DNA from: Rhizaria sp. SCN 62-66
Taxonomy: Eukaryota
Length of the DNA stretch: 43,433 nucleotides
Direction of reading: 5' to 3'
Assembly (NCBI GenBank): GCA_001724265.1
Contig: MEDY01000430.1
Location: forward strand, 1 to 43,433
Shown: positions 12,360 to 40,053 of the stretch, piece after piece
How positions within the stretch are numbered: the first letter of the stretch is position 1
How the letters are laid out: each line of letters opens with the position of its first letter
Translations under genes and position numbers: made by a program
The notes under the pieces: model-generated
What the model was told of the DNA's origin: nothing
The model's database searches: none
What the model saw: the letters and a program-made list of their open reading frames with translations, nothing else

Positions 12360-15300
12360 TCACATGACGACGCAGCAGCATTCGCGATCCTCGGCGTTGG
12401 GCTCCACCTTGTCCTTGTCCAGCGTCTCGCCGTCAGTCTCGCCGTCGTCGTCGCCGACGGACTTCTCGCCGCTGGCAGCGGCCGTGTCGCCAGTGTCGCC
12501 GTCGAGCGCCGTCGTGTTGTCGTCGTCGCTGTCGGCAGCGCCGGCGGCGGCGGGGGCGGCGGCCGCGACAGCGCTGTCGGACTCGGCCGCGGCGGCAACT
12601 GGAGCAGCCTTGTCACCAGCGGCGTCGGCAGCGGGAGCGGGAGCGGAGGAAGACTCGGCGCCGGCGTCGGCGGCCGCAGCGGGGGCCACGACGGGCTCGT
12701 CCTCGCCCAGATCCATCACAGGTGCAGCGACAGCATCAGCAGCGGCGTCGGCGTCGGGCGAAGGAGCAGAGGAGGCGACGGCGGGGACGGATGAGACAGC
12801 GACAGGAGCGTCTTCGTCATCGCCGAGGTCCATGATGGGCGCCTCAGAAGCCTTAGCAGCGGCAGCAGCGGCGGCGGGGGCAGCGGCAGCGGCAGGAGCG
12901 TCTTCGTCATCGCCGAGGTCCATGATGGGTGCCTCAGAAGCCTTAGCAGCGGCAGCAGCGGCGGCGGGGGCAGCGGCAGCGACAGGAGCGTCTTCGTCAT
13001 CGCCCAGGTCCATCACGGGGGCCTCGACAGCCTCGGCAGCGGCGGGGGCAGCGGACACGGACTCGGCGGCAGACGGGGCAATAGCGTCCACATCGTCGCT
13101 GCCGAGGTCCATGACCGGTTCCTCAACCTTAGCCTCAGCCTTCTTCTCCTTCTTCTCCTTCTTACTCTCCTTCTTAGTCTCCGTCTTGCTCTCCGTCTTG
13201 CTCTCCGTCTTGCTCTCCGTCTTGCTCCCCGTCTTGCTCTCAGTCTTGCTCTCGGCCTTGGCGGGGGCAGGGGCAACGGACTCGGTCGCGGCAACGTCGT
13301 CGTCGCCGAGGTCCATCATGATGGGAGCAGCCTGCTCGGCGGCCGCGGCCATGACGGGGGCAGCCTCGGCGTGAGAGGCATCAACAGCGGGCTTGTCGTC
13401 GGCGGGCTCCTCCTCGAAGGCGAAGCCGGGCGGCAGCGCGCTGGCGGACGCGGCGGCGACGGCGGGCTCCGCCTCGGCCATGTCCTCGGCAGCGGGCTCG
13501 GCGGGGCCAGCGCTCACGTCCTTGGCGTCCTCCTCGAGCGGCGGGGCGGGGGCGAGAATCTCGGCCTCGGCGGCCTGGGCAGCCTCGGCGACGGCGGTGG
13601 CGACCGATGCCACGACCGAGAGCGCGGCGACGGCGGCAGATGCGATCACAGCCACCGCAGGGTCGGCGTCGGCCTTGGCCTTGGCGTCCTCGGCCTCGGC
13701 GGCGTCGGCCTCGGCGTCGGGCGCCATCAGCTTGGGCTCGGGCGCGTCGACATGGTTGAAGCTGCTCGTGTCGACCGCCACGGCTTGGCGCGCGACAGCG
13801 TCGGGCGTGAGGTCGACGGGCGCGGCCGCCTTCTGGGCCGCAAGCTCCTCCTCAGACACGTGCTTGAGGGAGTGAGAGACGGCCACGGCAGCGGCGGCCT
13901 TGGCGACGGTGTCGGGTGCAATGACAACGGGCTTCTCGACAGGCTCAGCCGCGGCGAGACCGGACTTGTCGAAGGACGCGATGGCAGACGACAGCTCCGC
14001 GGGCACAGCCTTGGGCTCGCCGTTGTCTTCCTCCACCTCGGGCTCCGGCACGGGCTCAGGCAAGATAATCTTCTGCTCGGGCGCGTCGACGTGCTTGAAC
14101 ACGCTCTTGTCGAAGGACGCGGCCTGGTGCGCGACCACGCAGCAGCCTTCGCGACGGTGTCGGGGGTCGGCTCGGCGGCGCGATCGACGGGCTCGGCGGC
14201 AGTCAGGCCGGACTTGTCGAAGGACGCAATGGCGGACGAGAGCGCGGCAGGGACGGCCTTGGCCTCGGTGTCAGCGTCGTCGGTCTCGGCGGGGGCATCG
14301 AGCACCGGGCTGGCCTTGGCCACAGCGGCCTCGCTGGCCGTAGCAGCGACCTCGACGGTCTCCGCAGACTCGGCCTCGGCGGTGTCGGCCTCGGCGTCGG
14401 GCGCGACAAGCTTGGGCTCTGGAGCGTCGACATGGTTGAAGCGGCTCGTGTCCACGGCGGCGGCCTGGCGGGCGACGACGTCGGGCGTCAGCGTCACGGG
14501 CGCGGCCGCCTTCTGCTTGGCAAGCTCCTCCTCCGAGACGTGCTTGAGCGCGTTGGACGCAGCCAGTGCCGCAGCAGCCTTCGCGACGGTGTCGGGCGTG
14601 GGCTCTACAGCGCGCTCGACGGGCTCAGCGGCAGCAAGGCCAGACTTATCGAACGAAGCGATCGCAGATGAAAGCTCAACAGGCACAACCTTAGGCTCGC
14701 CGTTGTCCTCCTCAACCACGGGCTCCGGCACGGGCTCAGGCAAGATAATCTTCTGCTCGGGCGCGTCGACGTGCTTGAACACGCTCTTGTCGAAGGACGC
14801 GGCCTGGTGCGCGACCAGGACGCGGCCAGCGCGGCGGCGGCCTTGGCGACCGTGTCAGGCGCGATCTCGACGGGCTTGACCACGGGCGCTGAGTGCTGCA
14901 GCGCGCCGCGGTCAAAGTCGGAGATGGCCGCGGCAAGTTGGCCGGAGACGCCGGCCTTGGACTCGGAGCCAGCAGCGTCCGCGATGGGACTGGAGACAGG
15001 CGTGCTGCCGTCCTCAGCGTCGACGACGGGACTCGCCTCGGTCACGCTAATGTCGTCGGCCGTAGTCACAGCGGCTTCGGCGGCGTCGGCCTCGGCGTCG
15101 GGCGCAATGAGCTTGGGTTCGGGCGCAACCACGTGGTTGAAGGCGCTGGTATCGACGGCAGCGGCTTGGCGAGCGACGGAGTCGGGCGTGGGCTTAGCCG
15201 CAGCGGCCGCGGCGGCCTTCTGGACCGCGAGCTCCTCCTCGCTGACGTGCTTGAGGGCGTTCGACACGGCCACGGCGGCAGCGGCCTTGGCGACGGTGTC

Positions 15301-16734
15301 GGGTGCAATCACAGCGGGCTTCTCGATGGGCTCAGTAGCGGCAAGGCCACTCTTGTCGAAGGACGCGATCGCAGTGGAGAGCGCGGCTGGCACAGCCTTG
15401 GTCGCGGCCTCAGCGGGAACGGCAGCGACAACGGGCTTCTCTTCGTCCTCGTCCTCGTCCTCGTAAACGTCCTCGTACTCGTCCTCGTACTCGTCCTCAT
15501 CAGCTGCGGCATCGACAGCGTCAGCCGCGGCGTCGGGCACCATCAACTTCGGCTGAGGTGCTTCGACATGGTTGAAGCTGCTCGTATCAACAGTGGCGGC
15601 CTGGCGGGCAACAACATCAGGAGTCAACGTGACGGGCGCGGCCGCCTTCTGCTTCGCAAGCTCCTCTTCGGACACGTGCTTGAGCTTGTTCGAAGTCGCG
15701 ACGGCAGCGGCGGCCTTAGCGACAGTGTCGGGCGCAACGACGACGGGCCTCTCGACGGGCTCGGCTGAGGTAAGACCGGATTTGTCGAATGACGCGATGG
15801 CGGAGTTAAGTCCAGTGGGGACCGCGGCCTTCGCATCAGGACCAGTGGCGTCAGCGGCAGCGACAACGGGCTTCTCTTCGTCCTCGTCCTCGTCCTCGTA
15901 AACGTCCTCGTACTCGTCCTCGTACTCGTCCTCCTCAGCTGCGGCATCGACAGCGTCGGCCTTGGCGGCAGTGTCGAGCGCAACAACGACGGGCTTCTTG
16001 ACGGGCTCGGCGGCGGCGAGGCCGCTCTTGTCGAATGACGCGAGGGCGGAGGTGAGCGCGGCGGGCACAGCCTTCGGCTCGCCAGCAGCGGCACCAGTGG
16101 CGGCGGCTTGCTCCGCCTTCTTCTGAGCTTCTTCAAGGGCGGCAAGCTCGGCCTTGAGAGACTCCTCGGTGTCCTCGTCCTCGTCCTCGTAGACGTCCTC
16201 ATACTCGTCCTCGTACTCATCCTCCTCGGTCGCAGCGCCAGCGCCGGTGCTGTCAGCGGCGGGGTCGGCCGTGAGCACCAGCTTGGGCTGCGGGGCGTCG
16301 ACGTGCTTGAGCTTGTCGCGCTTGAAGCTCTCAATCTCACCAGGGAGCTTGGTGCGTGCCTCGTCCTCGAGAGTGGTGTCATAGTCGTTGTCGCTGTTCT
16401 TGTTGAGTCCGGCGATTTGATCCTTCACGCTGGCCAGGATGTTACGCGGAGAAAGTTCATCGTCACCGCTTTCAATGTCCTCAATTTCGGGGTCATGGGC
16501 GTCCTACACAAAAAAGCAAGCGGGAATTATTGAGCAAACAAAAATACAACATAATGTGATGTGAAAAGTGGCGAAACGGCTGGAAAAGAAAATGCAGCAC
16601 GAAAGCGCGTAATCTCTAAGGAGTGAGAAATGCATGGATTGCGCCGGGTCGTTAGCACCAGAAGAGTCGAAACGTACGCGAGGGCTAGCGCCAGCACCTG
16701 TCGGCGCAGAACCTAATCCAGGCTTTGCTGACAT
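12360..16734 (-). CDS. Multi-repeat WH2/beta-thymosin-like (actin-binding) protein with C-terminal CaaX (CCCVVM); two apparent frameshifts near 14817 and 14137
   Basis: Exon 1 16734-16678 (MSAKPGLG...SPR), intron 16677-16504 (GTACGT...TGTAG), then ORFs 14605..16428, 13727..14782 and 12360..14138. Modules such as EIESFKRDKLKHV, SAIASFDKSGL and FDKSVFKHVDAPEQKIILP resemble thymosin-beta EIEKFDKSKLKK. Confidence 0.75.
12807..13255 (-). repeat. Coding tandem repeats: ~75-bp units (APIMDLGDDEDAP...) and 12-bp units (KTES)
   Basis: Near-identical 75-bp units at about 12807-13015 and (CTCCGTCTTGCT)n at about 13179-13255. Confidence 0.85.
14039..14817. repeat. Identical 99-bp direct repeat (14039-14137 = 14719-14817) in the thymosin-repeat gene
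   Basis: Base-for-base match at 680-bp offset. Both frameshifts fall at the same end of this repeat. Confidence 0.9.
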
Positions 16735-17240
16735 GAACTTTCTGAAGGACACAAATGGGAAAGAATTGAAGGAGGCAAGGAGGTATGGTTCGCACTGTGA
16801 GCGGTTGGAAATTGTCACGATTTGTTGACATGTCAGTCTGCCACAAAAGCGCAAGAAAACTTATTAAGGAACAAAAATCACAACATCATAACAGTTTTTT
16901 ACAATGAAATGCTGTTTTACGACTCGTACGAAGCGTTGTTTAGCATGTTGCCTCACTGTCCTGCTTGGACTCAAACGAAACCGGGCTGTGACTGTGAGCG
17001 ATCCGAAGGAGCAACGAAAAGGATTACTTCAGCTCATCGACCCAGAGCAGAGCTACGTCGCAAGGCTTAAGCACTCGAAGTGCCACCATTTGTCCGTTGT
17101 TAAGTCTAACAGGCAAATTTTCAGGTCATAACCTTTATTTAAATCACAATCTCTATCAATAGCACCCAACAACGTCACTCATGACGATTTCTTCAACGCC
17201 CCTATTCCTCTTCTGCAACCTCGCTTGTAGCTAGCGATCG

Positions 17241-22200: not shown

Positions 22201-24736
22201 CCTGCGGCGACGGCGGCTGGCTCCCGCCGGGCAGCGCAACCGACAGCGCCGCGGCGGCCGCGGCGGCGGCGGCGGCCGCGGAAGATGACGGGAGAAACGG
22301 AGAGGCAGACAGCGACGGCTGGGGCTGCAGCTGCTGTGGGGACAGCGGCGGCGCCTGCGGGTGCTGCGGGGGCGGGGGCCCGGGCGGCGGCGGTGGGGGC
22401 GGCGACTGCGCCCTGTCCACCCCACCAGCGCCTGCGCCAGCGGTAAGAGCCGCGCTGGAAGCCGTACTGAGAGGAGAGCTGATGCCTGGACTGGAGACGC
22501 TGGCGCTGCTCGTCCTGCCGTGTCCCCCAGCGCCCGAGTCCCCGTTACCGTAGGCGAGCGCCTGAGTGCGCGCAGCGTGCGCGCCCGCATCGTTGCGCCG
22601 CGGGTGCGTGACAGTGGTCGTGGCGCGCGCGCGCTGGAAGTAGCCCGCGCCGCCTTCGAGCCCGCGTGGCGAACCCAGCACGCTATACACGTCGCCCCCC
22701 GCGGCGCCCCCGCCCCCGCTGGCGGCGGCCCCGCTGGCGGCGGCGGGCGCGGGCTTGCGCATGACAATCGCGGTTGCGCCCTGCGCGAACGAGTCGACGA
22801 CAAGGTCAACCCAGAACGGGTGGCTCTTAAAGCGCTGGAACGAGTCGTTCTTCATCAGCCGCTCAACCTCCTTGCCCGCGCGCAGGAGCGCGTCCATGGC
22901 GTTCTCCACCGGCCCGCCCAGCTCGTAGTCGAAGTCGAAGTCGTCCAGCAGCGCCGCGTCGTCGAACTCGTCCCCCCAGTCGTCGTCGGTCATAGCGTGT
23001 CCATGGTCGTGCGCACGGTCGCTGGGGAAGAAGTCGCCGCCGTCGGTGGCGGCGTCGTCATCGCCCTCGGGCAGCGGCGGCGGCGGCGGCGGTGGACTCA
23101 GCTCGCCGTCGAACTCAGGAGACAGCGCGGCGTCGCTCGAGAGGCCGTTGCTGTTGCCCTTGCCAGTGTTACTGGCGGCGTTGCCGGCGTCCGCGCTTCT
23201 CTGGGGGTAGAAGTACGTCACTCCGTCGTCTTCGTCGTCGTCCTGGGCCACATCGGGGCCCGTGGTCGCGGCCGGCAGCGCGTCCAGCGTGTCGGCATCG
23301 CCCTCCGGCAGCACGCCCTCCGGCAACGCGCCCATCGCCGCCGCGGCGGCCGCCTCCATGTAGGACGCGCCCGTGCGCATCTCCCAGTGCGCGATGCGGG
23401 CCTCGATGCGCTCGATGCGCGCGTCGGCGGCGGCGAGCGCGGCCGACAGCTCGGCCACGGCCGCCGCGGTCGCCGCAGAGGCGCGCGAGTCGACGTTAAC
23501 CTCGCGTGCGGCCTTGGCGCCGATGTATGTGTGCGCTACCATGGTGGCGAGCGCGGCAAAGTCGGTGACGAGCGCGGCGACCTCGTCCGTGAGCCCGAAG
23601 TGCAACCCCGCGGCCCGCTCGCGCGCGCGCACGACGCAGATGTCGCTGTACAGCGCATACAGCACCTGCACCTCGTGCCAGAAGTCGACGTTCTCCTCCG
23701 AGTGCTCGAGCCGCAGGAGCCGCGCGAAGTGGAAGAGCCCCACAGGATGCGACAGCACGGCGAAGAAGTCGGCCCCGTCGGCGAGCGCGAAAGCCACGGC
23801 GCGCGTTTTGGGGGAATACTTGGCCGCCGCGTTCAGCGTCGGCGCGCCCACAGGGACAGGGGCGTGCGTCGCGGCGCGCGCGCGGGGCGTCGCCGCCACC
23901 GACGACGGCAACACGCCAGTCGCAGTTGCCGTCGCAGTTGCTGCTCCGTGACCGTGACCGTGGCCATGACCGTGGCCGTGGCGGGCTGGGGTCCGGGCCG
24001 GCGTGGCCGCGGCGGCGGCTGCGGCAGCGCCGTTGTTGGCGTTGAAGCCGGCGGCAGAGCGCACGGGGGTCTGCGCCGGCGCGAAGCCGGGACGCGTGTA
24101 ACCTGGCGAGTGTCCTGATGACGACGCTGAGGCTGATGCAGCCGAGGCGGCTGCTGCTGCTGAGGTGATAGGCCCGGGGACGCGGGGCAGCGACGAAGTA
24201 ACCGTGGGCGGCGAGAAGAACCGTCCGCTGCCCGTGCGCCCCGTGCCAGCACCAGTGCCCGGCCCTGCTGCTGCTGCTGCTGCTGCTGCTGTTGTTGTTG
24301 CGCCTGCCCCGGCGCGGGCGGTGAGAGGTGCGGCCGAGCCCGCGTGCGCAGTGTACCCGCGCGCGAACGGAGACTGCAGCGGGCCGTGGCCGTGCGCATG
24401 CGACGCGGCGGGGCCGCCGCTGCTGCTGGCCGCGGCGGCCGCGACGGAGAAGGCTGATGAGGAGGAGGCCGACGTGGCCGTCATCAGAGGCGGGCGCTCG
24501 GGGCCTGCTGCGCGCGGGGACGCGAGGAACAGTGCAGAGGGAGCAGTCGCACGGAGGTGCGGAACAATGAGCTCGGGTCCAGCATTGCGGCGGGACGCGG
24601 CAGTGGGCGAGGAGAAGGACGGCGGCGGACTCAAGTTAGAAGCTTGCGAGCTGCCAGCGGATCCCGTCGTCGTGTCACGACTCGCCGTGTTGAAGGTCTG
24701 CAGCAGCGTCGGGCGGGACTAGAACCGCTGTGACAT
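19265..24736 (-). CDS. RGS-domain protein with polyproline tracts (~1823 aa if the in-frame TAG at 24721-24719 is read as sense)
   Basis: RGS motifs FFAVLSHPVGLFHFARLLRLEHSEENVDFW, YIGAKAAREVNVDS and EVERLMKNDSFQRFKSHPFW (22811-23767). ATG at 24736 is in frame via one TAG; TAA stop. The start is less certain than the domain. Confidence 0.8.
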
Positions 24737-25483
24737 ACTGCCCACACTAAAATGCGATTGAAACACAAGGATAGCGTGACAAGAAGACTGAGTGTCAGGT
24801 GTGGCACGCGATAATTGCCTCAAATCAGTTCGAAAGGGGCGCGTGTTGCCGTTTGGCTTTGTGATCAGAATATCTCTTTCAAAAATCCGTCAATGTAAAT
24901 GTGAAATTTAAAAACAAGACAAACCAGAGATATAGTCTAACATAATTCAATTATATCGTCGTTACAGAGAGTAGACATGCTGATTTCAGCAAGATTGGCA
25001 GCGGACTGGGAGCCGTTGAGACTGCGACTGGTCGAGCATACGAGGACACATGGGAGAGAGATTTGAGACTGTATTACAGGCGTCTATGAAAGCTTAATAC
25101 CCACAGAACGAGAGATAGATACAAGATTTGCCCCTCTTTCACATCCGGGCACCGCGCAATTCAGCGCGCGAGCCCCCGGGCAGGCGCTGTCGGAGTTATG
25201 AGACGAGCGGAGGGAAGAGGGACGAGGGGCAGCAGACTAATGTAGCCAGGGCGACCGGTCTCGGTCGTCGCGCCACGCGAGCAGGCAGCGCGCTCAACAG
25301 TGCTGAGTAGGGAGCTGGCGTGCGGCGGACGACGCGGCCGATCTAGAGAGCCCTCCAACCCAGGGCGCGGCGCGGGCGCGTCGCAAGCAAGGGCGGGACA
25401 GGGTCTCATCAGGAATAGAGAATGATTGAGGGGACAAGGAGTGGAGGAGGACGGAGTCAGCATGCGCGCGTTGCACGTCGCGC

Positions 25484-25922
25484 TTACTCGCTGGCCTGGG
25501 CAAAGGGGTTGGGGATCTCCTTGAGCCCCTCGGTGGGCGTGATGGTCACCACGGCCGTGCTGCGGCAGACGACGAAGCCCAGCGCGCGAGTCTTGTCGCT
25601 CGTCACCAGCGGGTCGCTGGGGTCGCGAAGGCGCTCCACGGCGTTGTCGAGAACGATGTTGATGCGCTTGTCCCAGCCCTTGAGGATGCCGGTGACTTCG
25701 CGGCCGCCGATGAACTTGACCATGACCTCCTGGTCGATGTAGCGGTTGAAGTCCACCGCGGGGGGCGCGCGGGCCTTCTGCTCGTGGGGCAAGAGCGGAC
25801 AAAGCAGATGGAATATAGCGCCACAAAGAAAAGTTAGCGGGAATAACTGGGCAGAGATAGAAAGAAACTCACGTAGTGATTGTTATGAAACATACCTTAG
25901 TGGAGTCAGCGTCCTCAGACAT
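25484..25922 (-). CDS. LSM7: U6 snRNA-associated Sm-like protein LSm7 (exons 25922-25896, 25777-25484)
   Basis: DFNRYIDQEVMVKFIGGREVTGILKGWD..INIVLD...LRDP...TRALGFVVCRST...EIPNPF is the Lsm7 signature. Intron 25895-25778 (GTATGT...GCAG). Confidence 0.92.
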
Positions 25923-27279: not shown

Positions 27280-30200
27280 TTAATTGTGGTTACCGTTGTT
27301 GCCGCTGTTGACATTCTGCCCATTGTGGCCGTGGTGCCTGTTGTCAACGAGCTGGAGACTGCCGTAGCCGCCGTAGCCGTGCCCGACGGTGGCCGCGGCG
27401 AGCCCGGCCTCGTGGCGCAGCGCCTCCAGGTCGTAAGCGCTCCAGTCGGTGACGGTGCCGCTGGGCGTTACGTTGACGGACTGGTTGCCGAGCATGGCGA
27501 GCAGCGCCTCGTGCTCGCGCGTCTCCTCGGCCTCGCGCTCCGCAACCACGCGCGCCTGCTTCACCCAGTCCAGCGTGGCGAGGTAGTAAGACAGCGCGCT
27601 GCACACGAACATGATCGCCACGACCATCGCAATCCACTGCCCGAACAGCCCCCAGCCGCGCGCCGTAACCTCGCACAGCTCCGCAGTGTGCAGGAACACG
27701 ACCGTGGCGCCTGCGTGCTGGGCCTCGGCCGCCGCCGCGTGGGAGACCACGGCCGACGCGGCCAGCCCGGCCTCGAGACCCACGGTCGCGTTGCCCGTGA
27801 AGACGTAGCCGGCCACCTCCGTCACCGGCGCGGCGAGGGTCGTGCTATGGGCGAGGGTGGCGTTGGCGGCCGCGTGCACCGCCGTCGTAGCGGTTTCGGG
27901 CGTCGTCGCCGAAGTGATGATGTCCTGTTGAGACGGTAAACAACAACAAAAGAAGAACATTATACACGTGAGCTAGGAATCAAGAAAATACCTGAAAATT
28001 GATTGATAAAATACAATAAAACAAACAATGGAAACCACACAATTATCATACATCCAAGAATGATGCACACAATACAACCCTCTTGCAAAAGTGGCGCGAG
28101 AGATGTGACGGACCTTGACGTCGCTGAGGGGGATGCTGCGGAGGTGCGAGCCGGTCTTCATGGCGAGCACGTACGCCAGGGGCAGCCCGACGCCCCAGTA
28201 GGCAAACGAGTAGACGTAGAAGCCGACGTCCTGAAGTCCGCAGCCGCGCAGCACGCCCGCGAGCATGCCTTGGAGCCCGTCAAAGAAGCAGTAGACGCAG
28301 ACGAGGGGCAGCGCCGTGGCCATGGCATGGAGCACGGCGGGCGAGTCGGTGAAGATGCGCCCCACGCCTTCGGAGAAGGCCCACACGCCCAGGCAGATGA
28401 TTAGTTCGAGCGCAATCGTGAGCCCGAACGAGACCTTGGCCGTGAAGCGCGCGTCCGCCGGCTTGTCCGAGCCCAGGAGCGCGCCGACGCGTGCCGAGGT
28501 GACGATGGCGAGCGCCATGGGCGCCATGAAGAGCAGGATCATGATGTTGAAGATGATGCTCTGCGCGCCCAGCACGGCCGAGCCTTGGAGGCCGGAGATC
28601 GCGGACTGCAGCTCCAGCCCCCACCACTCGGCGCACAGCATCGCCGTCGAGGGCAGCGCGTACGAGAGGAATTCCCCCCAGTCGCGCAGCGCGGCGCGCG
28701 ACCAGCGGCTCCAGGTTTTCTTGTAGAAGCCCGAGACGTAGAGGTAGCCCAGCGCGGCGGCGAGCATGCCCCAGGCCGTGCACACCGTGGTGTATGCGAT
28801 ACCGATGTAGCCCATCTGCAACCAGACGACAAAGATGACGTTGCAGACGAGCGTAATAGCCACGCCCGTGCACGTAATATACATGACCGGGATGGTGTTG
28901 TTCTGCGCCTGCAGGTACCGCTTGATCGCGTCAAGATATGACATGGCCGGGATCGCCGCTGCCGTGGCCTTGAGGAAGCGTCCCGCGTGCGCGCACGTCT
29001 TCTTGGGAAAGCCCAGCATGCGCAGGATCGGCTTGCCGTTGAGGCGCAGCGCGATCATGGGCCCCATGAGCAGCGTCACGATGAGCAGCGCGCGCTGGAA
29101 GATGTGGCCCACGCGGCGGTAGTTTTTGGCGCCGAAGGCCTGCGCGATTAGAGTGTCCATGGCGCCCATCATACCCATCACCAGCGACAGCGTCGTCACG
29201 TTGATGAACAGGATGCCCAGCGCGCCCGCGGCCAGCTCTTCCTCGGTCAGGTGGCCCAGGAAGATGAGGTCCACGATGTCCACCAGGTGGTCCGCGAAGA
29301 AGCCCAGGATGAGGGGGAGCGCGACGGTGAGCTGCTCGCGGACCTCGGTGACCACGGATGGCGCGAAGAGCTCGGCCAAGTACGACAGCGCGGCGTCGCG
29401 CGAATTGGAGAGCTTGTCCATGAGCGAGGGGCGGCGCACATAGCGCATCACGCCGTCCGGCCGCGCCAGCAGCGCCGCCGCCTCCTGAGTTCTAGGCCCC
29501 CCATGAGTACCCAGCTCGGGGTCACCGGTTCCAGCCGCGGCGGCAGCGGCGAGGACGGCGTCGGCGTCGGTGGCGGCAAGCGCGGCCGACATCGCGGCGT
29601 GCACCAGCGCCATCTCCGCCGCGTCTTTGCCGCCGCTGTCCTTGCCAGCTGCGCTGTTGCTGTTGCTGTTGCTGTCCGAGTGCAGCCGCAGCGTCTGGCC
29701 CTTGCCGCCGCCGCCCGCGCCGGCGGCCGCCGCGTTGGCCGTGGCCGTAGCGACGGCGTCGAGCGCCTCGGGTCGCGCGATGAGGTGGTCGGCCAGCACC
29801 TGGAGTTGCTGCTCGCGGCGCTCCGCCGCGGCCACGGCGGCGGCGTTCGCGGCCGCCAGCGCAGGCCGCGCCAGCGGCAGCAGGCGCGAGATGGGTGCCG
29901 CCGCGGCGCGCGGGTACAGCGCAGGCTCGTGCGGCACCGCCGGCGCGGCAGTCACAGTCGTGGTCGCCGTCGTGTTGATGTTGGCGGTGATGTTGTTAAT
30001 GTTCGTGTTTGAAGAGGCGGCCGAGACGGGGGGCGCGCGGTAGACGGCGGTGATGCCGTAGGCGTAGTCGTCGGCGGGGATCAGGCCGGCACGCGCGGCG
30101 CGGGCCTCGGAGAGCACGCGGCCGACGGGGAGTGTCCCGCTGCCGTCGTCCTCGTCCTCGTCCTCATCGTCGTCATCGTCATCATCGTCGTCGTCATCGA

Positions 30201-30507
30201 GGGAGGACGAGCTCACCGACGGCTGCGACGCCTCCGCGGGCAGCTATGCGGGCGCTGCGTTCGAGTTGGAGAGAGAAGGCTGGGTCCCCTATGTGCTCAG
30301 TGCCGCTACAGGCGCCGCGGGGGCGGCCGGGGCGACAGGGGCGGAGGGGGCGGCAGCGAGGGCGGGGGAGGAGGTCAGACCCTCTACGGCCGGCGAAGAG
30401 GGCGCGACGGGGGCCGTGGGGGCGGACAAGCCAGGCGGCTCGGAGTCCTTGGGGGACTCCATGCAGACAACGTCTTGGGGGCGCACGGTGCGCTTTTTGC
30501 GGGGCAT
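27280..30507 (-). CDS. MATE family multidrug/toxin efflux transporter (exons 30507-28114, 27924-27280; two in-frame TAGs in the N-terminal extension)
   Basis: MATE motifs FLGHLTEEELAAGALG, MDTLIAQAFGAKNY, RYLQAQN, EWWGLE, ARVGALLG, GVLRGCGLQ, YWGVGLP and GLFGQW...LDW. Phase-0 intron 28113-27925 (GTCCGT...AACAG). ATG 30507 is in frame through TAGs at 30291-30289 and 30246-30244. Confidence 0.88.
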
Positions 30508-30933: not shown

Positions 30934-33371
30934 TCAAAACTCGGACTCGAAATCAAAAGCATTCTCGCCCCCTTCGGCCGCGTCCCCCTCGCCATCCTCC
31001 TCCTCGGCGTCGTCCTCGGACTCGTACAGCACGTCGGTGTGGTCGAACGCGTCGGGGACGGCGCTGGCGAAGGCGTTGTGGGCCGTGATGTGCTCGACTA
31101 ACAGCTCGGCGACGCTCGCCATGACGTGGCTCTGCAGCCGCGCCGACGCCGCCAGCACCGCCTCACCGCCCGCTGCCGCGCCAGCGCCCGCCGCCGTGCT
31201 AGTGGCAGTGCCCGCACCGCCCACAGTCGCATCGGGGCCATCGGCTGCTGCAGCCTGGCGGGGGAAGAGCTGTGCGACGTGCGCGGTGACCTCGAGGTGC
31301 AGCGAGGCCGGGATGGCTTCGTCGGAGGGCGGCAGCAGCCGGAGATCGGGACCCGACCGCCGCTCCTGCTGCGCCGTCACCGAGCGGACGGTCTCCTCAA
31401 CCGCGACGGCGCCGCCGCTGACGGGGTCCGCCTGCTGGGTGACTGTGCGCACGGGGACCGAGGACGGAACCGCGGGGTCACGGGTTACCTCGTTACCGCC
31501 GTCGGTCTAGTCACTGCCATCGGTGTTATCAGCGACGATGTTGTTGCTGTTGCTGTTGTTGCTAGCGTCGTGGTTGGGGCGGGAGACAGGGGAGCTGGAC
31601 GCGGTGGCGGGCTCAGTGGAAGGCTCAGGAGAGTGCTCAGCGGCATCAGACTGCCCGGCCACAGCTGCAGGCGAAGGCTCGGTCTCAGTTGCGAGGCCGC
31701 CAGTGACAGCCCGGTAGACGTTGTCGAGATCGTTTTCACATGTATCGCAGATGTTGTCTTCGGCAGTCGAGTTGCCAGCAGCAGCCTTAGCGTCGACATT
31801 AGCAGTATCAGCAGCGTTGTTGTTGTCATCGTTGTTGTTCTTGTTGTTATTGCTAAGGTTGCCGTTTGTGCTGTTGGTGCCGATTTCGTTGTCGGCGCAG
31901 GGTGTGTTGCCGCCGCTGAACGTGTAGACGTCGTCACCCACGCTCGCGTCAATGACGGCGGCGTTGTTGCTGCCAGCGCCGTCGTCCGCGCTGTCACTCG
32001 CAGAGCGAGCGACATCAGCGTCGGCACAGTCGGAGTCAGCGTCCGACTCGGACTCGGGCTGCGACACAAAGCCGTTGGCAGCCTCGTTCTCAGCCTCATT
32101 TTCAGTATCTTGCTCGACAGCAGTACGCTGCGCCTGAGTCTCAGCCCCAGCCTCCGCCTCTGCCTCTGCCTCGGCCCGCATCTCGGCCCTGAGCGCGCTG
32201 CGCTGCGCCTCGGCGGCCTCCTCGCCAGCCAGGACCAGTCCCTCGGCTGCGACCTCGGCGTCCGACGCCCACCAGAAGCGGAACGAATCCTCAGCCTCGG
32301 CCTCCGCAGCCGCAGCGGCGTCCGCAGCGGCGTCCGCAGCGGCCTCATCTGCGTCAGCGTCGGCGTCACCGCCGTCGGCGGCGGTGGCGGCGGCGGTGGC
32401 GGCGGCAGTGGACTGGGGGTCAAGGTAGAGGGACTGCGGGTCAGCGTCGCGGGAGCTGATGATAGTCGCAACCACGACAGGTACAGCCGCGGCCGCAGCA
32501 GCAGCCGCAGACTCCTCGCTCGGGGCCGCAACGCTCGTCGGACTCGAGCTCGAGCTTGATGTCGAGTTGCCGTTGACGCTCGAGCCCGCGCCATGAGCGC
32601 GGGCGGCCATGGCGTTGGCAGCCGCAATCGCGAGCGCCGTGGCAGAGGCCAGGGCTGCGTCAGTAAGCTCAGCGGCCGTCTCCTCTCCAGCCCCAGCCCC
32701 AGCCCCAGCCCCAGCCCCGGCCTCGGCCGCGGTCGCCGCAGCTGTCACACCAGCATTTATCGCAGCAGCCGAGCCCCCAGTGTTGCCCTGCAAGAGCGCG
32801 TCGCGACGCCGCTGCAGCCGCAGCAGCGCCTCCCGGACCCTGGCGGCGCTCGCGGCCCACTGGCCGTCCGCCCCGTTCGCCGCCGCTGCGGCCACCAGCG
32901 CCGCCGCCGCCGCCGCCGCCGTCGCACCAGCGCCCTGCTGTTGCGGTTGAGCCTGCGTGACTGCCGCTGCGAGTGCGGCCGCCGCCGCGGCGGTGGCGTC
33001 CCGCGCGGCCTCCGCGGCGGCGACCTCCGCGGGCGGCCCCGCGTGGCCGCGGGCGACGTTGCGGTCGTCCCACTGCGCCTCGCGCGAAAGCTGCACCTGC
33101 ACGCGTGTGCGGCGCGCGACCTCGACGCCCACGCGGCGGCAGCGCGGGCCGCAGCAGAGCCAGCCGGAGACGGAGAGTGAGAGGCGGAACAGCGGCCGCG
33201 AGCGCAGCAGCCGCGGCAGCGACAGCACGACGACCGTCGACACGATGTCCGCGCGCAGCTGCACGTGCTGCTGGTACGCGCCGGCGGGAGCGTCGCTGGA
33301 GCGGGTGCGGGAGTCGCCGTCGCCGTAGTCGTAGCCGTAGCCAGGAATGCTGGCGTTGCCGCTGCTGCCGC

Positions 33372-33404
<33 letters not shown>

Positions 33405-36400
33405 CGCTCTGGGCGTTGCGCCGCGCCTGCCACACGCGCGCCTCCTCGCGGGCCCGCGCCAGCGCCGCGGCCAGCAGCTCATGCGACTCCGGCCGAGAAC
33501 CAGCGCCCGACTGCAACTGCGACCGGTGAGACTGTAGGGGCGAGCGCGACTGCGCCTGCGGATGCGGCGTCTGCGTGCGCTGCACTGCGCCCGTGCCGTC
33601 CCCCACCAAGTCCTCATTCGCACTCGCAGATGCACTGGCGCTCGGCGCGCTGATGATGGTGCCCCGGGCGGGCACAGAGTCAGCGTCGGCATTGGCAGGG
33701 TAGGTACAGTTGGCATCCACAGCTACAGCGACGCCGCGCACGCGACGAGGGCGGGCGAGGGCTGCGCTGGTGGTCGGGGACAGGAGCAGCTCCTCGCCAC
33801 CGTGGCCGTAGCTGTGGCTCGCGTCGCTGCGATCGCTCTGCGCAGCGGGTGTGGCTCCGCCGGTCAGCAGCGACAGCGTCGACGACAGCGACGACGAGGT
33901 TCGAGAGTGACCGTGAGCAGAACCTGCCTGGCCGTGAGCAGAGTGACCGTGGGCCGAGTGACTGGGAGCGGGGTACAGCGTGGCAAGCGCAGGACCCCAG
34001 GGGAGGCGGCGCCAGTGAGCCGTGTCGGCCAGGGCCACGGCGTCGGCGTCGTCACTTGCAGGGACCGGAGGACGCGCGCCCCCACTGCCGCGACCCCGTG
34101 CGCCGGCACTCGTCGCCCTCAGAGTCAGAGTCGCAGTTGCACTGGTACTTGTTGGAGTATTCTCAGTCGCAGTCTCAGTCTCAGTCGTAGTGCTGCTTTT
34201 AGTGTCGTTGACAGCGCTTAATGCAGCAGCAGCAGCAGAGACATCTGCAGCAGAGCCGCTCGTCAGCGCAGCATCAGCCTCTGATGCTCCTGTTGCCACA
34301 GTTGCAGTTGCTGCGTCAGCCTCTGGCGTAGCTGCCGCGGCCACAACCTCTGCAGTGACAGGCTTGGTCTCTGTGCGCGTCGCCATCGCCCCAGCCGCAG
34401 GGCTCGCGTCAGCGTTGCCACCCGTCACACTGCTCCTCGTAGTTGCCCTCTCAGCCAGCGCGGGCTTTCTCTGAGCAGCGGGCCGATCCTGCTCCTTCTT
34501 CCGCGCAGCCCGCTCTCGCTGGTGCGCGGCCCAGGCCAGCGCCTCCGCGGCCCGGGTCTCTGCGGCATCGGCGTCAGCGCGCGCCGCAAACATGGTCCAC
34601 CGCTGCACGTCGTAGTCAACGTCGTCACCGGCAGTAGCCTCCCTCGTGTTAGCCCTCGCACTGCTACTTGAGTCAGCAGCAGCAGCAGGGGCGCTCGCGC
34701 TCGCGCTCGCGTCTGCGCTCAGACTCGAGCTCAACTGGGGGCTCGCGCCTCCCCTCTCGCCCTCGCTGCTGCCGTCCTCTCTGCTGCCGTCGGCGCCGCG
34801 ACCGGCGCCGTGACCGCTGCCGCGCGAGAAGTCGAGCGCGCGGCACAGCAGCATCGTGCGCCGCCGCTCGCGCCACTCTTGCGCGCGTGCCTCCTCGCGC
34901 CGCGCCACGTCCCCCTCGCCCCCCGCACTTGCACTCGCACGCGCACTCACACTGGCGCCGGCTCTGCTGGAGCTGGCGCCGCCCTGCGGGAGGAGCGGGC
35001 CGCGGCAGAGCGGGCACGTCGAGGCGTGGCGCGCCAGCTCCAGCAGGCACGCGGCGTGCAGCAGGTGGCCGCAATGCAGGCGACGCACGCCCGCGTCGAG
35101 CGCAGTGAGGCAGATGGCGCATTCGTCCGCCACCGGCGGCGGCGGCAGCGGCGGCGGGCCCGGCAGCGGGGGCGCGAACCCAGCCGAGCGCGCGCCATCT
35201 CTGTCGTTGCCATCGATATCATCATCGCTGTCACTGCCAATAACATCAGCATCCGCACTGTCGTCACCATCGCCATCGCCATCGTCGTCATTGAGGCCGA
35301 GCTGTTTCTTGCGATCGCGCCTCTCCTGCCGCCTCTTGACCACCCGTTGCTGCCTACGCCACGCCAGCCTCGCCGCGAGCCGCTCCCTGGCAAGGTGCAT
35401 CCGGACGGCGGCCAGGGCGTCCGCCTCGACCGCGGCCCGCTCGGCCTCGGAGACGAAGGAAGGCGCGAGCAGCTGGTCCGCAGGCAGCTCGGGCACCGCG
35501 GCGAGCGCCTCGGCGTGGCGCAGCGAGCTCAGCAGCACGCGCGCGCGCGGCGCCGTGAGCGCGGCGGCGGCGCGCAGGAAGAGCCACGGCGCGACGAGTA
35601 AGTCGACGCGGAACGGGTACGCGTACGCTAGTGACGGCAACAGCAGAACGGCCGGGTCCGTCAGCGGCGGCAGCACGAGGGCGCACTCGCGGCACAGGCG
35701 CGAGAGCGAGTCACCCAGCGCCGCGCCTTGAGACGGGTCCAGCAGCGCGCGGAGCAGCCCCGCGAGCGCCGCGGGCACCATAGGGGCGACGCGGGGGACC
35801 GCGGCGTGCGCCAGCTCGACCGCGAGGTCTGGCCACAGCTGCTCATCGTCGTCGGCGGCGGCACTCCGATCGGCGCCTCCCCGGTCGCCGCCGTTGCCGT
35901 TGCCGCTGCCGTTGCGGTCGTTGTCGGCGCTGGCGCTGGCCTGCGCGAGCGCGTCGCGGAGCGCCGCGTCGGCCGCGCCGGCAGCCGCGCGGTCAGCGGC
36001 GCGTGCAGGCACGAGGATGAAGGCGGCGGACAGGTGGGCCAGCGCCGAGAGCGCGGCAGCGGTGACTTGCACGCTGAGCTCCAGCCCCACGATGAGCGCC
36101 GGGAGCAGCCCTGTGGGCGCGAGCAGCGTGGCGGCAGCGGCGGCGAGCGCAAGGTTGACGCCGAACGAGACGAGGCTGACGGAGGTGCCTCGGTGCAGCA
36201 GCTGCCGCAGCCAGAGCCGGCCTCGAGCCTCGAGCGGCAGCAGAGCGCGCTGCGCCGGAGAGAGCCAGCGCTGCTCGCCCGGCCGCGCCAGCGAGTCGCC
36301 GGGGTAGATCAGGTGGCCGTGCGCGGCCGCACTCGCACTCACACCTGCAGTGGCGCTCGCACCCGCAGGAGCAGCGGCGGCAAGAGAGGGGCGCGGAGGG

Positions 36401-36945
36401 AGGTCTGGGTCGGCACGGGAGAGCAGCGCAGCCTCGTAGAAGGCCAGCGCAACGGCAGCGGGCAGGCGCGCAAGTGAGGCAAGCGACGCAACGCAGAGCC
36501 AGGCGGCGAGCTCGTAGGCGTCGCCCGTGGCGAGGTAGATGAAGAGGCAGAGCAGGAGCCGGCGTAGACCGTGTGCGCCCCCGGCCCCCGCGGCGGCCAC
36601 GGCGGCGCGCGGGCGGGCGTAGACGCGCGCAAGCCGGGCAATAAGCGCGTAGCGCAGCACGCGGTCGGCGGTGAGTACGACGAGCAGCAGGTGCAGCGGC
36701 ACGGCGAGGAAGTGGGTGACGACGCGGGACACAGGCCAGTGCAGCGCGGAGACCGAGTCCCAGGTGCGGAGGAAGAGTAGCGTCAACGCGCCCAGTAGCG
36801 CCGCGATCAGGCGCAGCGAGAACGGAAACGACGGCTAGTCTGCCGAGGCGTCTTGCCGCGCAGCAGCAAGAGCAGCGGCAGCAGCGGCGCTGGCAGCCGG
36901 CTACTGCTGCTGCGGCAGTGGCAGTGGCTGTGGCGCCGGTCTCAT
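30934..36945 (-). CDS. Multi-pass membrane RING-H2 E3 ubiquitin ligase (Hrd1/gp78-like layout), ~2003 aa with three in-frame TAGs
   Basis: Hydrophobic N-terminal segments; RING-H2 CAICLTALDAGVRRLHCGHLLHAACLLELARHASTCPLC (35121-35005). One frame runs from ATG 36945 to TGA 30934, broken only by TAG at 36903-36901, 36837-36835 and 31509-31507. Confidence 0.8.
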
Positions 36946-37602
36946 GTGACAGCGGCGGCCGCGCCGGGACCAGGCGAGAGAGTGTGGTTAAGTGTTGACT
37001 AAGTGTGGGGTCTGTTCTGGCAAGATTGAGTCAGCCCTGATGGGGCAAACGGCAAACAGACTGGGGAGAGAGACGGGCGCAAGGGTGAGTGAGCAGCGAG
37101 TGGGAGGGGAGCACAACGGGCGACGATGATTCCACAGACTAGAGTTGGGGATAAGTACGCAAGTGCGCAGATTTAACAAAGATATACTGAGGAAAATTCC
37201 GCGAAATGTCGATATACCACAGTTGATCTGATAGAAGACGATGCATGATTGACTTGTAGGAAGATATGTGGTACTGACTGGTCAGCCTGGTTCCGGAAGG
37301 CGAGAGGCTGGGGCGCTGCATCACCATTCGGAACACATTAGTATAACACAAGCGTCCGATGATAGATATCATGACACATATGACGATCCAGAATCATGAC
37401 GTTAATGTCTTATTTATCTTTTTATATTCCATAAATCTGCGCCTGTATTGCTCCTCAGAGGTCACGCGCTCTGACGAGGTCAGGTCACTTTAAGCCGTTG
37501 CAGCTCTGCTTTCGCAGGCATCTCCTCCCTTCCCCTGGCTCACCACTGACACTTTTTTCACTCTGCACTCTTAAAATCTACTTTTACCATGACAGATTCG
37601 AT

Positions 37603-40053
37603 ATGGCTGACCGCTCTAGTACGTTTACACCCACATGTCCAGCCAATCTTCCATTTTCACCACACCCCATTCGCTCACGTTTTCACCCGCCCTCTCCTCG
37701 CTACTGTACGCAGTCACCGTCAAGTGGAACAAGAACACTTACGACGTCACACTCACTGCCGACGAGTCCATCGACTCGTTCCGCGCCAAACTCACAGCTC
37801 TCACCCAGGTTCGTCGTAGGCACTGCTCTACTCGCCACAACCCAGCTCCACCACCAACGGTTTATTGCCCTCTCCTCTCTATCTCACCCCAATCTCACCA
37901 TATACCTCCATAACTTGCCAAACACACTTACCACTCTCTTTTTGCAGGTCCCCGCCGAGCGCCAGAAGCTGATGCTCAAGGGCAAGTTCGTCAAGGACAC
38001 GGCCGCCGTCGCCGCCGTGGCCGCGGGCGCGCAGATCGTCCTCATGGGCACCGCCGACGACGCGCTCCTCGCCGCCCCCGCGGCCGCCGTGGTCTTCGCC
38101 GAGGACCTTAGCGCGGAGCAGAAGGTGCGGCTTAACGTCGCCAAGGACCCGGCCGGCTTGGTGAACCTGGGCAACACGTGCTACATGAACGCCGTCGTCC
38201 AGCTGCTTCGCGCCGTCCCCGAGCTCCACGACGCGTCCCTCACGCACATGCGCCTCGCCAACGCCGCCGGCACCGCGGGCGCGGCCGCCGCGGCCCCCGG
38301 CGCGAGCGTGGCGGCGGCGGCGCTGGCGGGCGCGCTGGCGGGCGGCCCCCACGAGCGGCTGGCGCTGGCCTTCGGGCTGCTGATGGACCTCGCCGACAAG
38401 ACCGACGGCTCCGTCACGCCGCTCATCTTCCTCAGCGCGCTACGCAAGGCGTTCCCACAGTTCGCCGAGATGAGCCGCTCGGGACAGGTTGGCGCGCAGC
38501 AGGACGCCGACGAGTGTCTCACACAGGTACGCCATCAAAAACACGCCAACAGGCTAACTATGCTGTGATTTTTTGCTGTGTTAAAATATTTTGTCATTTT
38601 GCATTGGTTCTCGTTCTAAGGAAGTTTGTACGAATTGAATGTCAAATCATACTAAATAATATATGAATGTATATATTATTGCAACGTGTCGCTATATTCC
38701 ATGCTTATCTGCTCTGTGTATCTCTTTTTAATCTCCCCTGTTTTTTTTTTTTTTAACTCTGTGCCACTCATAACTCGTGCCCAGCTCTTCACGGCGCTGG
38801 CCGACAAGATGCGCCACGTGCCCTCCGACAAGTCCGTGAGCCGCGGCATGAGCAACTGGATCGACATGCTTTTTGGCGCCGAGATGCGCAGCTCCCTCTC
38901 GTACGTTACCATTTACTTGTCTGCTGTAATGAGATTTTCCGCTTAAGGAGAATGTTTGTTCATGACCACGCATGGTTCTTTTAAAACTTTGCACAACTAT
39001 ATTTTAACAGCAAGAGTACATGATTCATGTATGCTGAATAATGTCTGTAAATGCTTTAATATATCTTTGCTTCATTCCACGTAGGTCCCCCGACGCGCCG
39101 GCCGAGGCGCCCGTGGTGGAGTTCGAGACTGTGCGCCGCCTGAAGTGCTTCATCTCCGGCGAGGTCAACTTCATGGTCGAGGGCATCAAGCTCGCGCTCA
39201 AGGAGGAGATCACCAAGAGGTACGTATGAGTCCAGATATCACTGCTCAAAGAACAATTACAAGCGTTGCTTACTTCTGACTGCACGTTGTGGCGAATTTG
39301 CATATTGTTGACCTTATTTTCATTTTTCGCATTATTTTCATTGTTCTCTGTGCCTCTAGGTCGTCGTCTCTGGGCCGCGACATTGTCTACACGCGCACCA
39401 GCGGCTTAACTTCGCTGCCCCCGTACCTCACGGTGCAGTTCGAGCGCTTCTTCTGGAAGTCGGACAACGGCAAGAACATCAAGTCCAAGATCATCCGCAA
39501 GGTCGCATTCCCGGTGCGCTTCGACGTGTTCGACATCACCGAGGGTGACCTTAAGGCCTCGCTCAAGGCCCGTCGCGCGATCATGATCGCTGAGCAGGAC
39601 GTCAAGCTCGGCCTCCCCGCGCTCAAGTCCCCTCATAGCAACGCCGCTGCCGCCAACGGGGCCTCGTCCAGTCTGACTAGCGCCGGCGCCGCGATGACTG
39701 ACGACACTGCCGCCTCCGCGGTGGCGCCGCACCCGCTTACGTCGGGCCAGTACGAGCTGCAGTCTGTTGTTACTCATAAGGGCCGCGACGCCGACTCGGG
39801 CCACTACATCGGTTGGACCAAGCAGGCCGACGGGCGGTGGTTCAAGTTCGACGACGACGTGGTGACCGAGGTCAAGGAGGCCGACATCACGGCGCTGTGT
39901 GGCGGCGGCGACTGGCACACGGCGTATCTCGTCGTGTACCGCCGTGTCGACGACGTCAAGGAGGCCGAGGAGGCCAAGGCCAAGGAGCTCAAGGACAAGG
40001 AGGCCGCGGCCGCCACTGCGGGACAGGAGGGCAAGGTCGAGATTGTCGAGTAA
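37603..40053 (+). CDS. USP14: Proteasome-associated deubiquitinase UBP6/USP14 (exons 37603-37618, 37714-37808, 37948-38526, 38785-38900, 39085-39219, 39360-40053)
   Basis: N-terminal UBL (ITVKWNK...VPAERQKLMLKG...LMGT), Cys box GLVNLGNTCYMNA, QQDADEC, LPPYLTVQFERFFWK, His box THKGRDADSGHYIGW, GGGDWHTAY. Five GT-AG introns keep the frame. Confidence 0.93.

Follow-up and report, generated by a model that had tools for sequence, protein, structure and literature searches.

A long reading frame interrupted only by TAG raises the question of whether UAG is translated in the organism that carries it and, if so, as which amino acid. The frame (30934..36945, minus strand) lies in a contig of 43,433 nucleotides, which was analyzed at its full length (hereafter, the window) and is one of the 714 contigs of a 34.9-Mb genome (G000, in which it is C430). 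It corresponds to a single-exon gene for a membrane-type RING-H2 protein, with 2003 codons followed by TGA. The frame contains three in-frame TAGs and no TAA or TGA, and it stays open only when TAG is translated.

The RING-H2 gene and its TAG codons

The presumed start codon (36943..36945, minus) is the first in-frame ATG downstream of a TAA. TAG 1, which is codon 15 (36901..36903, minus) and most likely originated from CAG, is preceded by a CAG CAG CAG run (36904..36912, minus). TAG 2 is codon 37 (36835..36837, minus), and TAG 3, codon 1813 (31507..31509, minus), is followed by 190 coding codons and the TGA. An earlier note on this DNA gave the minus-strand letters exactly, from the ATG at 36945 to the first TAG at 36903-36901 (CCG CAG CAG CAG TAG CCG GCT) and for the second TAG 22 codons on (GCA GAC TAG CCG TCG, at 36837-36835), which is followed by the hydrophobic PSFPFSLRLIAALLGALTLLFL; the third, at 31509-31507, it overlooked. 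The 190 codons past TAG 3 have a coding score of +133 nats, and the DNA beyond the TGA scores as non-coding. At the rate of the genome sample described below, 0.31 TAGs rather than three would be expected (P=0.004) in this gene, which was chosen for having them.

The protein has four hydrophobic segments, at residues 41-59 (36769..36825, minus), 75-93, 258-276, and 294-312, all of them modest (mean hydropathy 2.0-2.2). The next in-frame ATG, codon 389 (35779..35781, minus), is 1164 bases on and 3' of all four, in agreement with the earlier statement that it is more than 1 kb away and that without read-through the membrane segments lose their start. Pfam detects a RING-H2 finger at residues 607-648 (35002..35127, minus; PF13639, E=3e-9), and residues 38-615 match no Pfam family except for the start of the RING. 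Compared with ligases of the HRD1/gp78 type, the RING-H2 is present, and the N-terminal side has the four modest hydrophobic stretches. The gene and one for a USP14/Ubp6-like deubiquitinase lie head to head, with about 770 bases between the two (window positions 36945-37714).

Removal of the first two TAGs by an intron, which the earlier note had named as evidence against its own reading, is not plausible according to tests of donor, acceptor, and GC content that used a codon model and a small gene-finder trained on stretches of the genome. None of the 127 predicted introns is shorter than 97 nucleotides, and their median GC is 0.37. Two candidate donors near TAG 1 and TAG 2 score -3.0 and -2.1, and the lowest score of a predicted intron is -1.6. 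TAG 2 is weak as a splice acceptor: the AG at 36835 has a T-poor, G-rich context that is equally poor in 2% of predicted introns. The stretch from the ATG to TAG 2 is 69-75% GC and scores as coding, and its AGs lack a T-rich tract. The 5' splice site in the genome sample is very strict, with GTACG at the start of 101 of the 127 predicted introns.

No RNA contig spans 36835-36903 among the 32 pieces listed of about 1760, and no piece spans TAG 1, 2, or 3 among those listed from four contig runs. RNA contigs of one run (X5) within the RING gene flank TAG 3 on both sides, and also cross the TGA.

TAG as a sense codon in the genome

TAG usage was assessed in about 0.87 Mb of unique sequence out of the 34.9 Mb, a sample that includes the window and is not random, being rich in dyneins and in neighborhoods of tRNA genes. 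With the same read-through cost set for all three stops, 30 TAGs were internal and 5 terminal, compared with 4 and 87 for TAA and 6 and 65 for TGA (30/5 versus 10/152 for TAA and TGA together; Fisher p=8e-22). The strongly supported internal cases comprise 16 TAGs, two TGAs, and no TAA. The read-through proposed for the RING gene is strongly supported both there and genome-wide. Across this sample, the gene-finder predicted 207,206 codons with 34 TAG sites, and exons ending 152 times in TAA or TGA and 4 times in TAG. Two sites were dropped (L022, in which the TAG overlaps a GTACG donor, and L153), and 32 were kept. At C-termini chosen by motif, the stop is TAA in 9 of 10 cases and TGA in the other. 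Of the five exon ends predicted at a TAG, one shares letters with a GTACG donor, another is 6 nucleotides before a donor, a third continues in frame, a fourth is seen only downstream of a read-through TGA in the equal-cost run, and the last (L153) is of uncertain status.

TAG is also found inside eRF1 domain 1, MORN, zf-PARP, USP, Ras-like, and ubiquitin-like domains, and kinases. Through family searches that count stops within matches, exonic TAGs came to light in eRF1, six kinases, two USP domains, one Ras-like domain, and one ubiquitin-like domain. The 23 flagged matches that were read include 10 with an exonic TAG, 11 with TAG only in a splice acceptor or intron, and two (L221 and L222) that spanned introns; L231 has both a splice-acceptor TAG and an exonic one. 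Matches at C208:101790, C505:11548, and C390:8280 and the mixed-stop matches in UCH and SNF2 were left out, and there is no exonic TAG among the flagged matches fetched for the kinesin, ABC, DEAD, SNF2, and HSP90 families. In a TKL kinase with a TAG, the VATK, HRD, DFG, and APE motifs are intact, and 680 codons continue past the TAG. Annotation by the standard code truncates such genes, as in a public protein (P0361) that corresponds to this kinase cut off exactly at its TAG.

Within the window, the neighboring MATE transporter gene has a TAG in its N-terminal region (30289..30291, minus) and a second in frame (30244..30246, minus). An RGS-domain gene has a TAG 5 codons past a candidate ATG (24719..24721, minus) that is either a sense codon or a splice acceptor, and was left out of the count of 32 sites. 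Its letters recur with 0 differences in a contig of another study (run X4, piece 1), and the letters of the eRF1 TAG are identical in a metagenome contig (L180) that is possibly from the same sample.

UAG is almost certainly translated as a rare sense codon, with UAA and UGA kept as stops. The opposite reading, that TAG is still a stop and that the internal cases are errors, nonsense alleles, pseudogenes, or missed introns, with the tRNA described below as a weak suppressor or pseudogene, is largely refuted and very improbable. It would explain why the codon is so rare, why 10 TAGs first flagged in family matches turned out to be splice acceptors, why one exon ends in TAG (L153), and why the window TAGs have no RNA contig among the pieces listed. 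However, errors and nonsense alleles would yield TAA and TGA as well, gene ends are almost without TAG, the sole eRF1 found carries a TAG, and the tRNA folds and scores normally.

A CUA tRNA resembling tRNA-Glu

A single-copy gene outside the window (G000:C84:76008-76080) encodes a tRNA to which ARAGORN assigns the anticodon CUA, and which has an Rfam score of 58 bits. The gene ends in a T run and is surrounded by intron-bearing genes. It was recovered with a genome-wide pattern for the CUA anticodon loop, which gave 17 matches: nine are Ile or Leu tRNAs, and one of the eight others is a tRNA. An earlier pattern, in which a fixed purine at position 9 excluded this gene, gave 18 matches, with no tRNA at the 13 non-Leu loci. 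Such patterns could miss a CUA tRNA that has an intron and an unusual D arm. For UUA, none of 20 scanned matches out of 31 is a tRNA with that anticodon (one is a tRNA-Pro), and 5 more of the 31 can be assigned to Thr, Lys, or Pro genes from their position or an identical sequence.

In comparison with the genome's own tRNAs, the CUA tRNA is identical at 47 of 73 positions to Glu(CTC) and at 40 to Glu(TTC), whereas Gln(CTG) and Gln(TTG), from which it would derive in a code with UAG as Gln, share 33 and 27. Identity to the Leu, Ser, Lys, and Tyr tRNAs is at most 36 of 73, and the variable loop is short, with no long arm. The pairs U1:A72, C2:G71, and C3:G70 are those of both Glu tRNAs, the T stem is identical to that of Glu(CTC), and the G1:C72 and U73 of both Gln tRNAs are absent. 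The best named matches in a phage collection are mostly tRNA-Glu, with weak E-values. The anticodon stem is unlike that of the Glu tRNAs, as is position 38 (A38, versus C38 in both).

The CUA tRNA has U11-A24, U13-G22, A46, and a variable loop of 4 bases, which, along with C36, are listed as Glu determinants in E. coli in the accessible text of PMC9976931; that they carry over to this eukaryote is an assumption. By the same list, the replacement of C36 by A would count against charging with Glu. A BLAST search with tRNA-Gln(CTG) gave five exact copies and nothing else. An Asp origin would need two anticodon changes, and the genome's tRNA-Asp was not found. The tRNA probably derives from tRNA-Glu, and its body suggests that it is charged with Glu.

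Altered eRF1

Only one eRF1 was found in the genome, and the other family match looks like Pelota. The protein carries T32S, G57S, and T58K; among 118 homologues, 117 have T at the first of these columns, all 118 have G at the second, and 117 have T at the third. It also has M34V, L124M, and K130Q, and keeps NIKS, E55, S70, YxCxxxF, and L69. In eRF1, Thr32 forms a bond with the G of UAG, and Iotanema has another residue there, according to PMC5304391. The substitutions in the GTS and TASNIKS motifs would have cost the protein much of its recognition of UAG.

The eRF1 gene, on G000:C63, itself has an in-frame TAG (L031:1594-1596, minus), which is located in the N domain even though the gene's codon bias is strong (GC3 0.89). 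The chance of a TAG in this gene at the average rate is about 6.5%. The codon aligns to human position 107, a column with E in 106, D in 11, and V in 1 of 118 homologues. The nearest relative, a JGI protein (P0003) that is 84% identical, shares M34V, T58K, and F114V, keeps T32 and G57, and may represent an earlier state of the same lineage. Because this closest relative has Val at position 107, the column appears relaxed in the lineage. A metagenome scan for eRF1 relatives found one identical contig, and the others are at most 69% identical.

Glutamate or glutamine

Conserved columns are divided over the residue. A TAG in a kinase hinge occupies a column with E in 145 of 146 aligned homologues, found with a search query that carried Gln. 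In contrast, a TAG at ubiquitin position 28 stands where all six of the organism's own copies have CAG, and where 162 public domains have E in 0, Q in 39, and A in 93. Overall, two informative columns favor Glu (6-11 bits each) and one favors Gln (6-10 bits). The TAG-bearing ubiquitin domain has 27 synonymously replaced codons versus 10 others, and this copy also carries Q2E and Q62R. A TAG in a NEK-like kinase aligns to Q of human NEK1, and the site in kinase L218 has D in two paralogues.

Pfam bits summed over 10 TAG sites are 602.0 for E, 600.6 for K, 598.9 for Q, 593.5 for S, 586.6 for Y, and 585.6 for L. The advantage of E over Q is 3.1 bits, of which 2.4 come from one site; the eight sites other than eRF1 and the kinase hinge sum to 0.1 bit, and at the MORN site Q is above E by 0.8 bit. 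L216 and L227 (insert, poor alignment) were outside this scoring, and L129 was judged by paralogues. PDB alignments at TAG sites are uninformative (Y at L212, mixed at L099, unaligned at L226, S or G at L077), and the top PDB matches at L229 are KSR, with S. A test based on IQ motifs is powerless, with 6 matches versus 12 in the control and 0 IQ cores in 207,206 sampled codons. Dynein heavy chains provide no conserved TAG sites.

The flanks of the 32 sites resemble those of CAG: the share of Gln is 0.153 for TAG, 0.152 for CAG, and 0.041 for GAG, and the neighbor likelihood is -528 for Q, -553 for the next best, and -561 for E. This comparison of contexts, of a kind that the earlier note had suggested for the whole genome, makes its proposal of a CAG-to-TAG origin at the poly-Gln run likely, and excludes contexts like those of TTG or CTG (P ≤ 1e-4). 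The further step, from a transition within poly-Gln to a probably synonymous change, is a non sequitur. Transitions outnumber G/T-type changes between paralogous copies by 109 to 18, or about 6:1 (18 alignments, partly coding), so most TAGs should come from CAG under either a Gln or a Glu meaning. With transitions this favored, CAG would be the source of 40-66% or more of TAGs even if TAG is Glu, which fits the same-exon control and is disfavored by the genome-wide one. Against the genome-wide control, a mixture that is 100% CAG-like fits best, and one of 50% loses 3.5 log units; against same-exon or local controls, the optimum is 50-70% CAG-like (70% for same-exon). A rough mutation-selection model with assumed parameters and acceptances yields likelihood ratios of E over Q that range from less than 0.1 up to 91, or from 0.4 to 91 at a bias of 4-6.

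Readings of UAG as Leu, as in the rhizarian exLh and the TARA phyllopharyngeans, or as Lys, Ser, or Tyr are scarcely credible. In the Pfam sum, Lys trails Glu by 1.4 bits, and as a weak hint toward Leu, the organism may be a rhizarian like exLh. However, Glu outscores Leu by 16 bits, Tyr by 15, and Ser by 8.5, and AAG-, TCG-, and TAC-like flanks are excluded at the same level as those of the Leu codons. The earlier remark that Leu also reads plausibly does not hold, with Leu 13 bits below Gln as well, and neither Leu columns nor a Leu-type tRNA with a long variable arm are seen.

UAG as Gln, the earlier proposal, is a more serious alternative, although unlikely. It would require that the Glu-bodied CUA tRNA has switched to GlnRS, that a Gln-type CUA tRNA is missing, or that tRNA-Gln(CUG) reads UAG by first-position wobble after eRF1 has ceased to act on the codon. 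The assembly is in 714 contigs, and many tRNA genes are close to contig ends. Gln-rich, CAG-like flanks, ubiquitin position 28, and the Q in NEK1 stand in its favor, and Gln is the commonest target of stop reassignment according to the available text of PMC11687900. However, the sole CUA tRNA from two genome-wide patterns has a Glu body, the search with tRNA-Gln(CTG) returned only its exact copies, and Glu-to-Gln replacements would be needed at the kinase hinge and at eRF1 107. Local controls reduce the flank signal, which transition bias would by itself be expected to produce.

The coding sequence alone is indecisive; the CUA tRNA tips the balance to Glu. The preferred reading is a variant nuclear code in which UAA and UGA are stops and UAG is a rare sense codon, probably for Glu. 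These gradings, from probable for Glu through unlikely for Gln and doubtful for a mixture of the two (below) to very slight for anything else, are judgments rather than computations. If UAG is read as sense, most likely as Glu, it follows that the RING protein would most likely be made at full length from the ATG at 36945, with QQQE at the first TAG.

Rarity of UAG and a possible route to reassignment

TAG is used at 1.5e-4 per codon, with 32 sites in the 207,206-codon sample and at least one in 23 of 285 long exons; the same sample has 7208 CAG, 1306 CAA, 8744 GAG, and 1277 GAA codons. TAG is about 0.3% of Glu codons, or about 0.4% relative to the Gln count. Dynein regions have 0 TAGs in 53,439 codons, and GC3 is lower in exons with TAG than in others (0.76 versus 0.84, p=0.018). 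In five phyllopharyngean ciliates, UAG makes up 6.5-32% of its codon family and is found in 78-91% of genes, as given in the accessible part of PMC11687900. The share here is 15-100 times lower, and the widespread use common to all five is not seen.

TAG is almost absent at gene ends, lies inside intact genes, and is avoided in strongly biased genes. Together with the CUA gene and the altered eRF1, these observations are consistent with the following route. As UAG fell out of use as a stop, eRF1 would have drifted from recognizing it, and a copy of tRNA-Glu would have captured the codon by a C36A change. The single-copy CUA tRNA would now decode UAG, charged with Glu. New TAGs would arise mostly from CAG by C-to-T changes in loosely constrained, Gln-rich regions that tolerate Gln-to-Glu replacement, with a smaller number derived from GAG where Glu is the true residue. 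UAG would be costly, through slow decoding or some remaining termination, and TAG would be kept rare; such a cost may be why it is so small a share of Glu codons and absent from dyneins.

Another reading of this rarity, which we consider doubtful, is that UAG is ambiguous, specifying Glu through the cognate CUA tRNA and Gln through the near-cognate tRNA-Gln(CUG) or mischarging, perhaps with some termination. TAGs would then be kept only where both residues are tolerated. This agrees with the split among informative columns, with the nearly equal acceptance of E and Q at most domain sites, with the lower GC3 of TAG exons, and with the empty dynein regions; moreover, TAG is 40 times rarer than CAA, although one cognate tRNA gene was found for each. 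On the other hand, a GC-rich genome in which the reassignment arose recently would show the same rarity. Against a near-cognate tRNA, the cognate one normally prevails, which likewise counts against ambiguity.

A more speculative and rather improbable variant is an early codon capture in which UAG is Glu (perhaps with some Gln or termination), one Glu-derived tRNA decodes it, UAA and UGA are still stops, and the in-frame UAG of eRF1 serves as a feedback sensor. More eRF1 would lead to more truncation of the product of its own mRNA. A hint in its favor is that this TAG stands in a strongly biased gene, where one would be expected by chance in 6.5% of cases at the average rate; the Val of the nearest relative counts against this. 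Bacterial RF2 has an internal stop and is controlled by frameshifting. Plant eRF1 is autoregulated by read-through and NMD that act at the 3' end, according to the available text of PMC5397192. The likeness to both is that output of a release-factor mRNA could hinge on termination efficiency. The plant stop is at the gene end, whereas the UAG here is inside the N domain and any feedback is hypothetical. No use of an in-frame stop within an eRF1 gene for control was found in the literature searched.

Comparison with known codes

UAA and UAG are nearly always reassigned as a pair, and a change of UAG alone is found in only a handful of eukaryotes. UAG specifies Gln, with UAA and UGA as stops, in Iotanema spirale (PMC5304391) and in Hartmannula sinica as well as Trochilia petrani (PMC11687900), as described in the accessible parts of these reports. 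As in the present organism, UAG alone is sense, and genes end in UAA or UGA. Iotanema has T32G in eRF1, compared with T32S here. In H. sinica and T. petrani, UAG accounts for 18.5% and 31.8% of Gln codons and occurs in 78-84% of genes, in contrast to its rarity here. No suppressor tRNA was found in those cases, whereas a Glu-bodied CUA gene is present here. If Gln is correct after all, this would be a further independent case, whose CUA tRNA had to switch identity.

UAG is read as Leu in the rhizarian exLh, a member of Sainouroidea (PMC5304391), and in three TARA phyllopharyngean ciliate MAGs (PMC11687900), and as Ser in Scotinosphaera, as cited in the latter, all from the portions of these papers at hand. 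In exLh and the MAGs, as here, UAG is uncoupled from UAA, and two of the MAGs have CUA tRNAs from a canonical tRNA. However, exLh has 384 UAGs in 71 genes and an L69A change in eRF1, in contrast to a rare UAG and a conserved L69 here.

The nearest parallel in meaning is Oligohymenophorea sp. PL0344 (PMC10553269, accessible text), in which UAG is Glu through CUA tRNAs closest to tRNA-Glu, at 69-93% identity versus 64% here. The same text describes UAA as Lys, UGA as the sole stop, and 10 CUA and 12 UUA tRNA genes. In the present genome, by contrast, there is one CUA gene, a UUA gene was not found among the matches examined, and TAA is the commonest gene end, which is inconsistent with UAA as sense, either as in PL0344 or in codes with UAR as Glu. 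Peritrich ciliates and Blastocrithidia read amber as Glu, as proposed here, yet UAA is also Glu in them, and in Blastocrithidia UGA is sense as well, with stops set by context. UAG as Glu has so far been reported only where UAA is also reassigned, in PL0344, peritrichs, and Blastocrithidia, and no such code with UAA and UGA as stops was found in the literature searched (mostly open-access, main texts). If Glu is correct, the code would thus be a variant absent from that literature. With the tRNA and the altered eRF1 both in hand, the middle stage of reassignment, whether by an unassigned or an ambiguous codon, becomes testable.

The organism and additional observations

The organism is probably a flagellate, because it has many dynein heavy chains. 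Runs that hold at least half of its words are bioreactor and wastewater metagenomes and one unlabelled run, from three studies, one of which is possibly the source. A poly(A) run from activated sludge holds 0.36 of the words, and the small shares in runs X6 and X8 are no evidence on habitat. The organism thus recurs across several studies, in samples from bioreactors, wastewater, and sludge. Its HSP90 is at most 71% identical to the matches listed, and neither the HSP90 nor the ubiquitin search pointed to a close relative.

The SSU rRNA gene (L092:1501-5945, plus) spans 4.4 kb and includes four Rfam group I introns. The ubiquitins (L234, L235, L236, and L238) are unusually divergent, with a best public match of 91% over most of their length. 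They start with MS-MQIF, and several copies end in GG-HPQ-stop or GG-HSQ-stop; two L234 copies look decayed. Rhizarian polyubiquitin has insertions of one or two residues, as described in the available texts of PMC12930898 and PMC13746701. The MS-MQIF start recalls these insertions, but no tandem polyubiquitin junction is assembled here. At another locus (L129:1555-2145, plus, on G000:C681), a ubiquitin domain is fused to a Peptidase_S74 chaperone domain. This locus, which includes the TAG at ubiquitin position 28, is in a low-GC stretch with duplicated upstream segments and is possibly a mobile element.

Elsewhere in the window, positions 12360-16860 (minus) encode a protein made of repeats that resemble thymosin, and its end is of the CaaX type. 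Its frame shifts near 14110 and 14810 without an intron, perhaps through assembly slips in the repeats. At 25462-25732 and 28143-28740, in Sm/Lsm-like and MATE genes, contigs of runs X4 and X5 differ from the window at many sites, which points to a relative of the organism in the sludge samples behind these runs.
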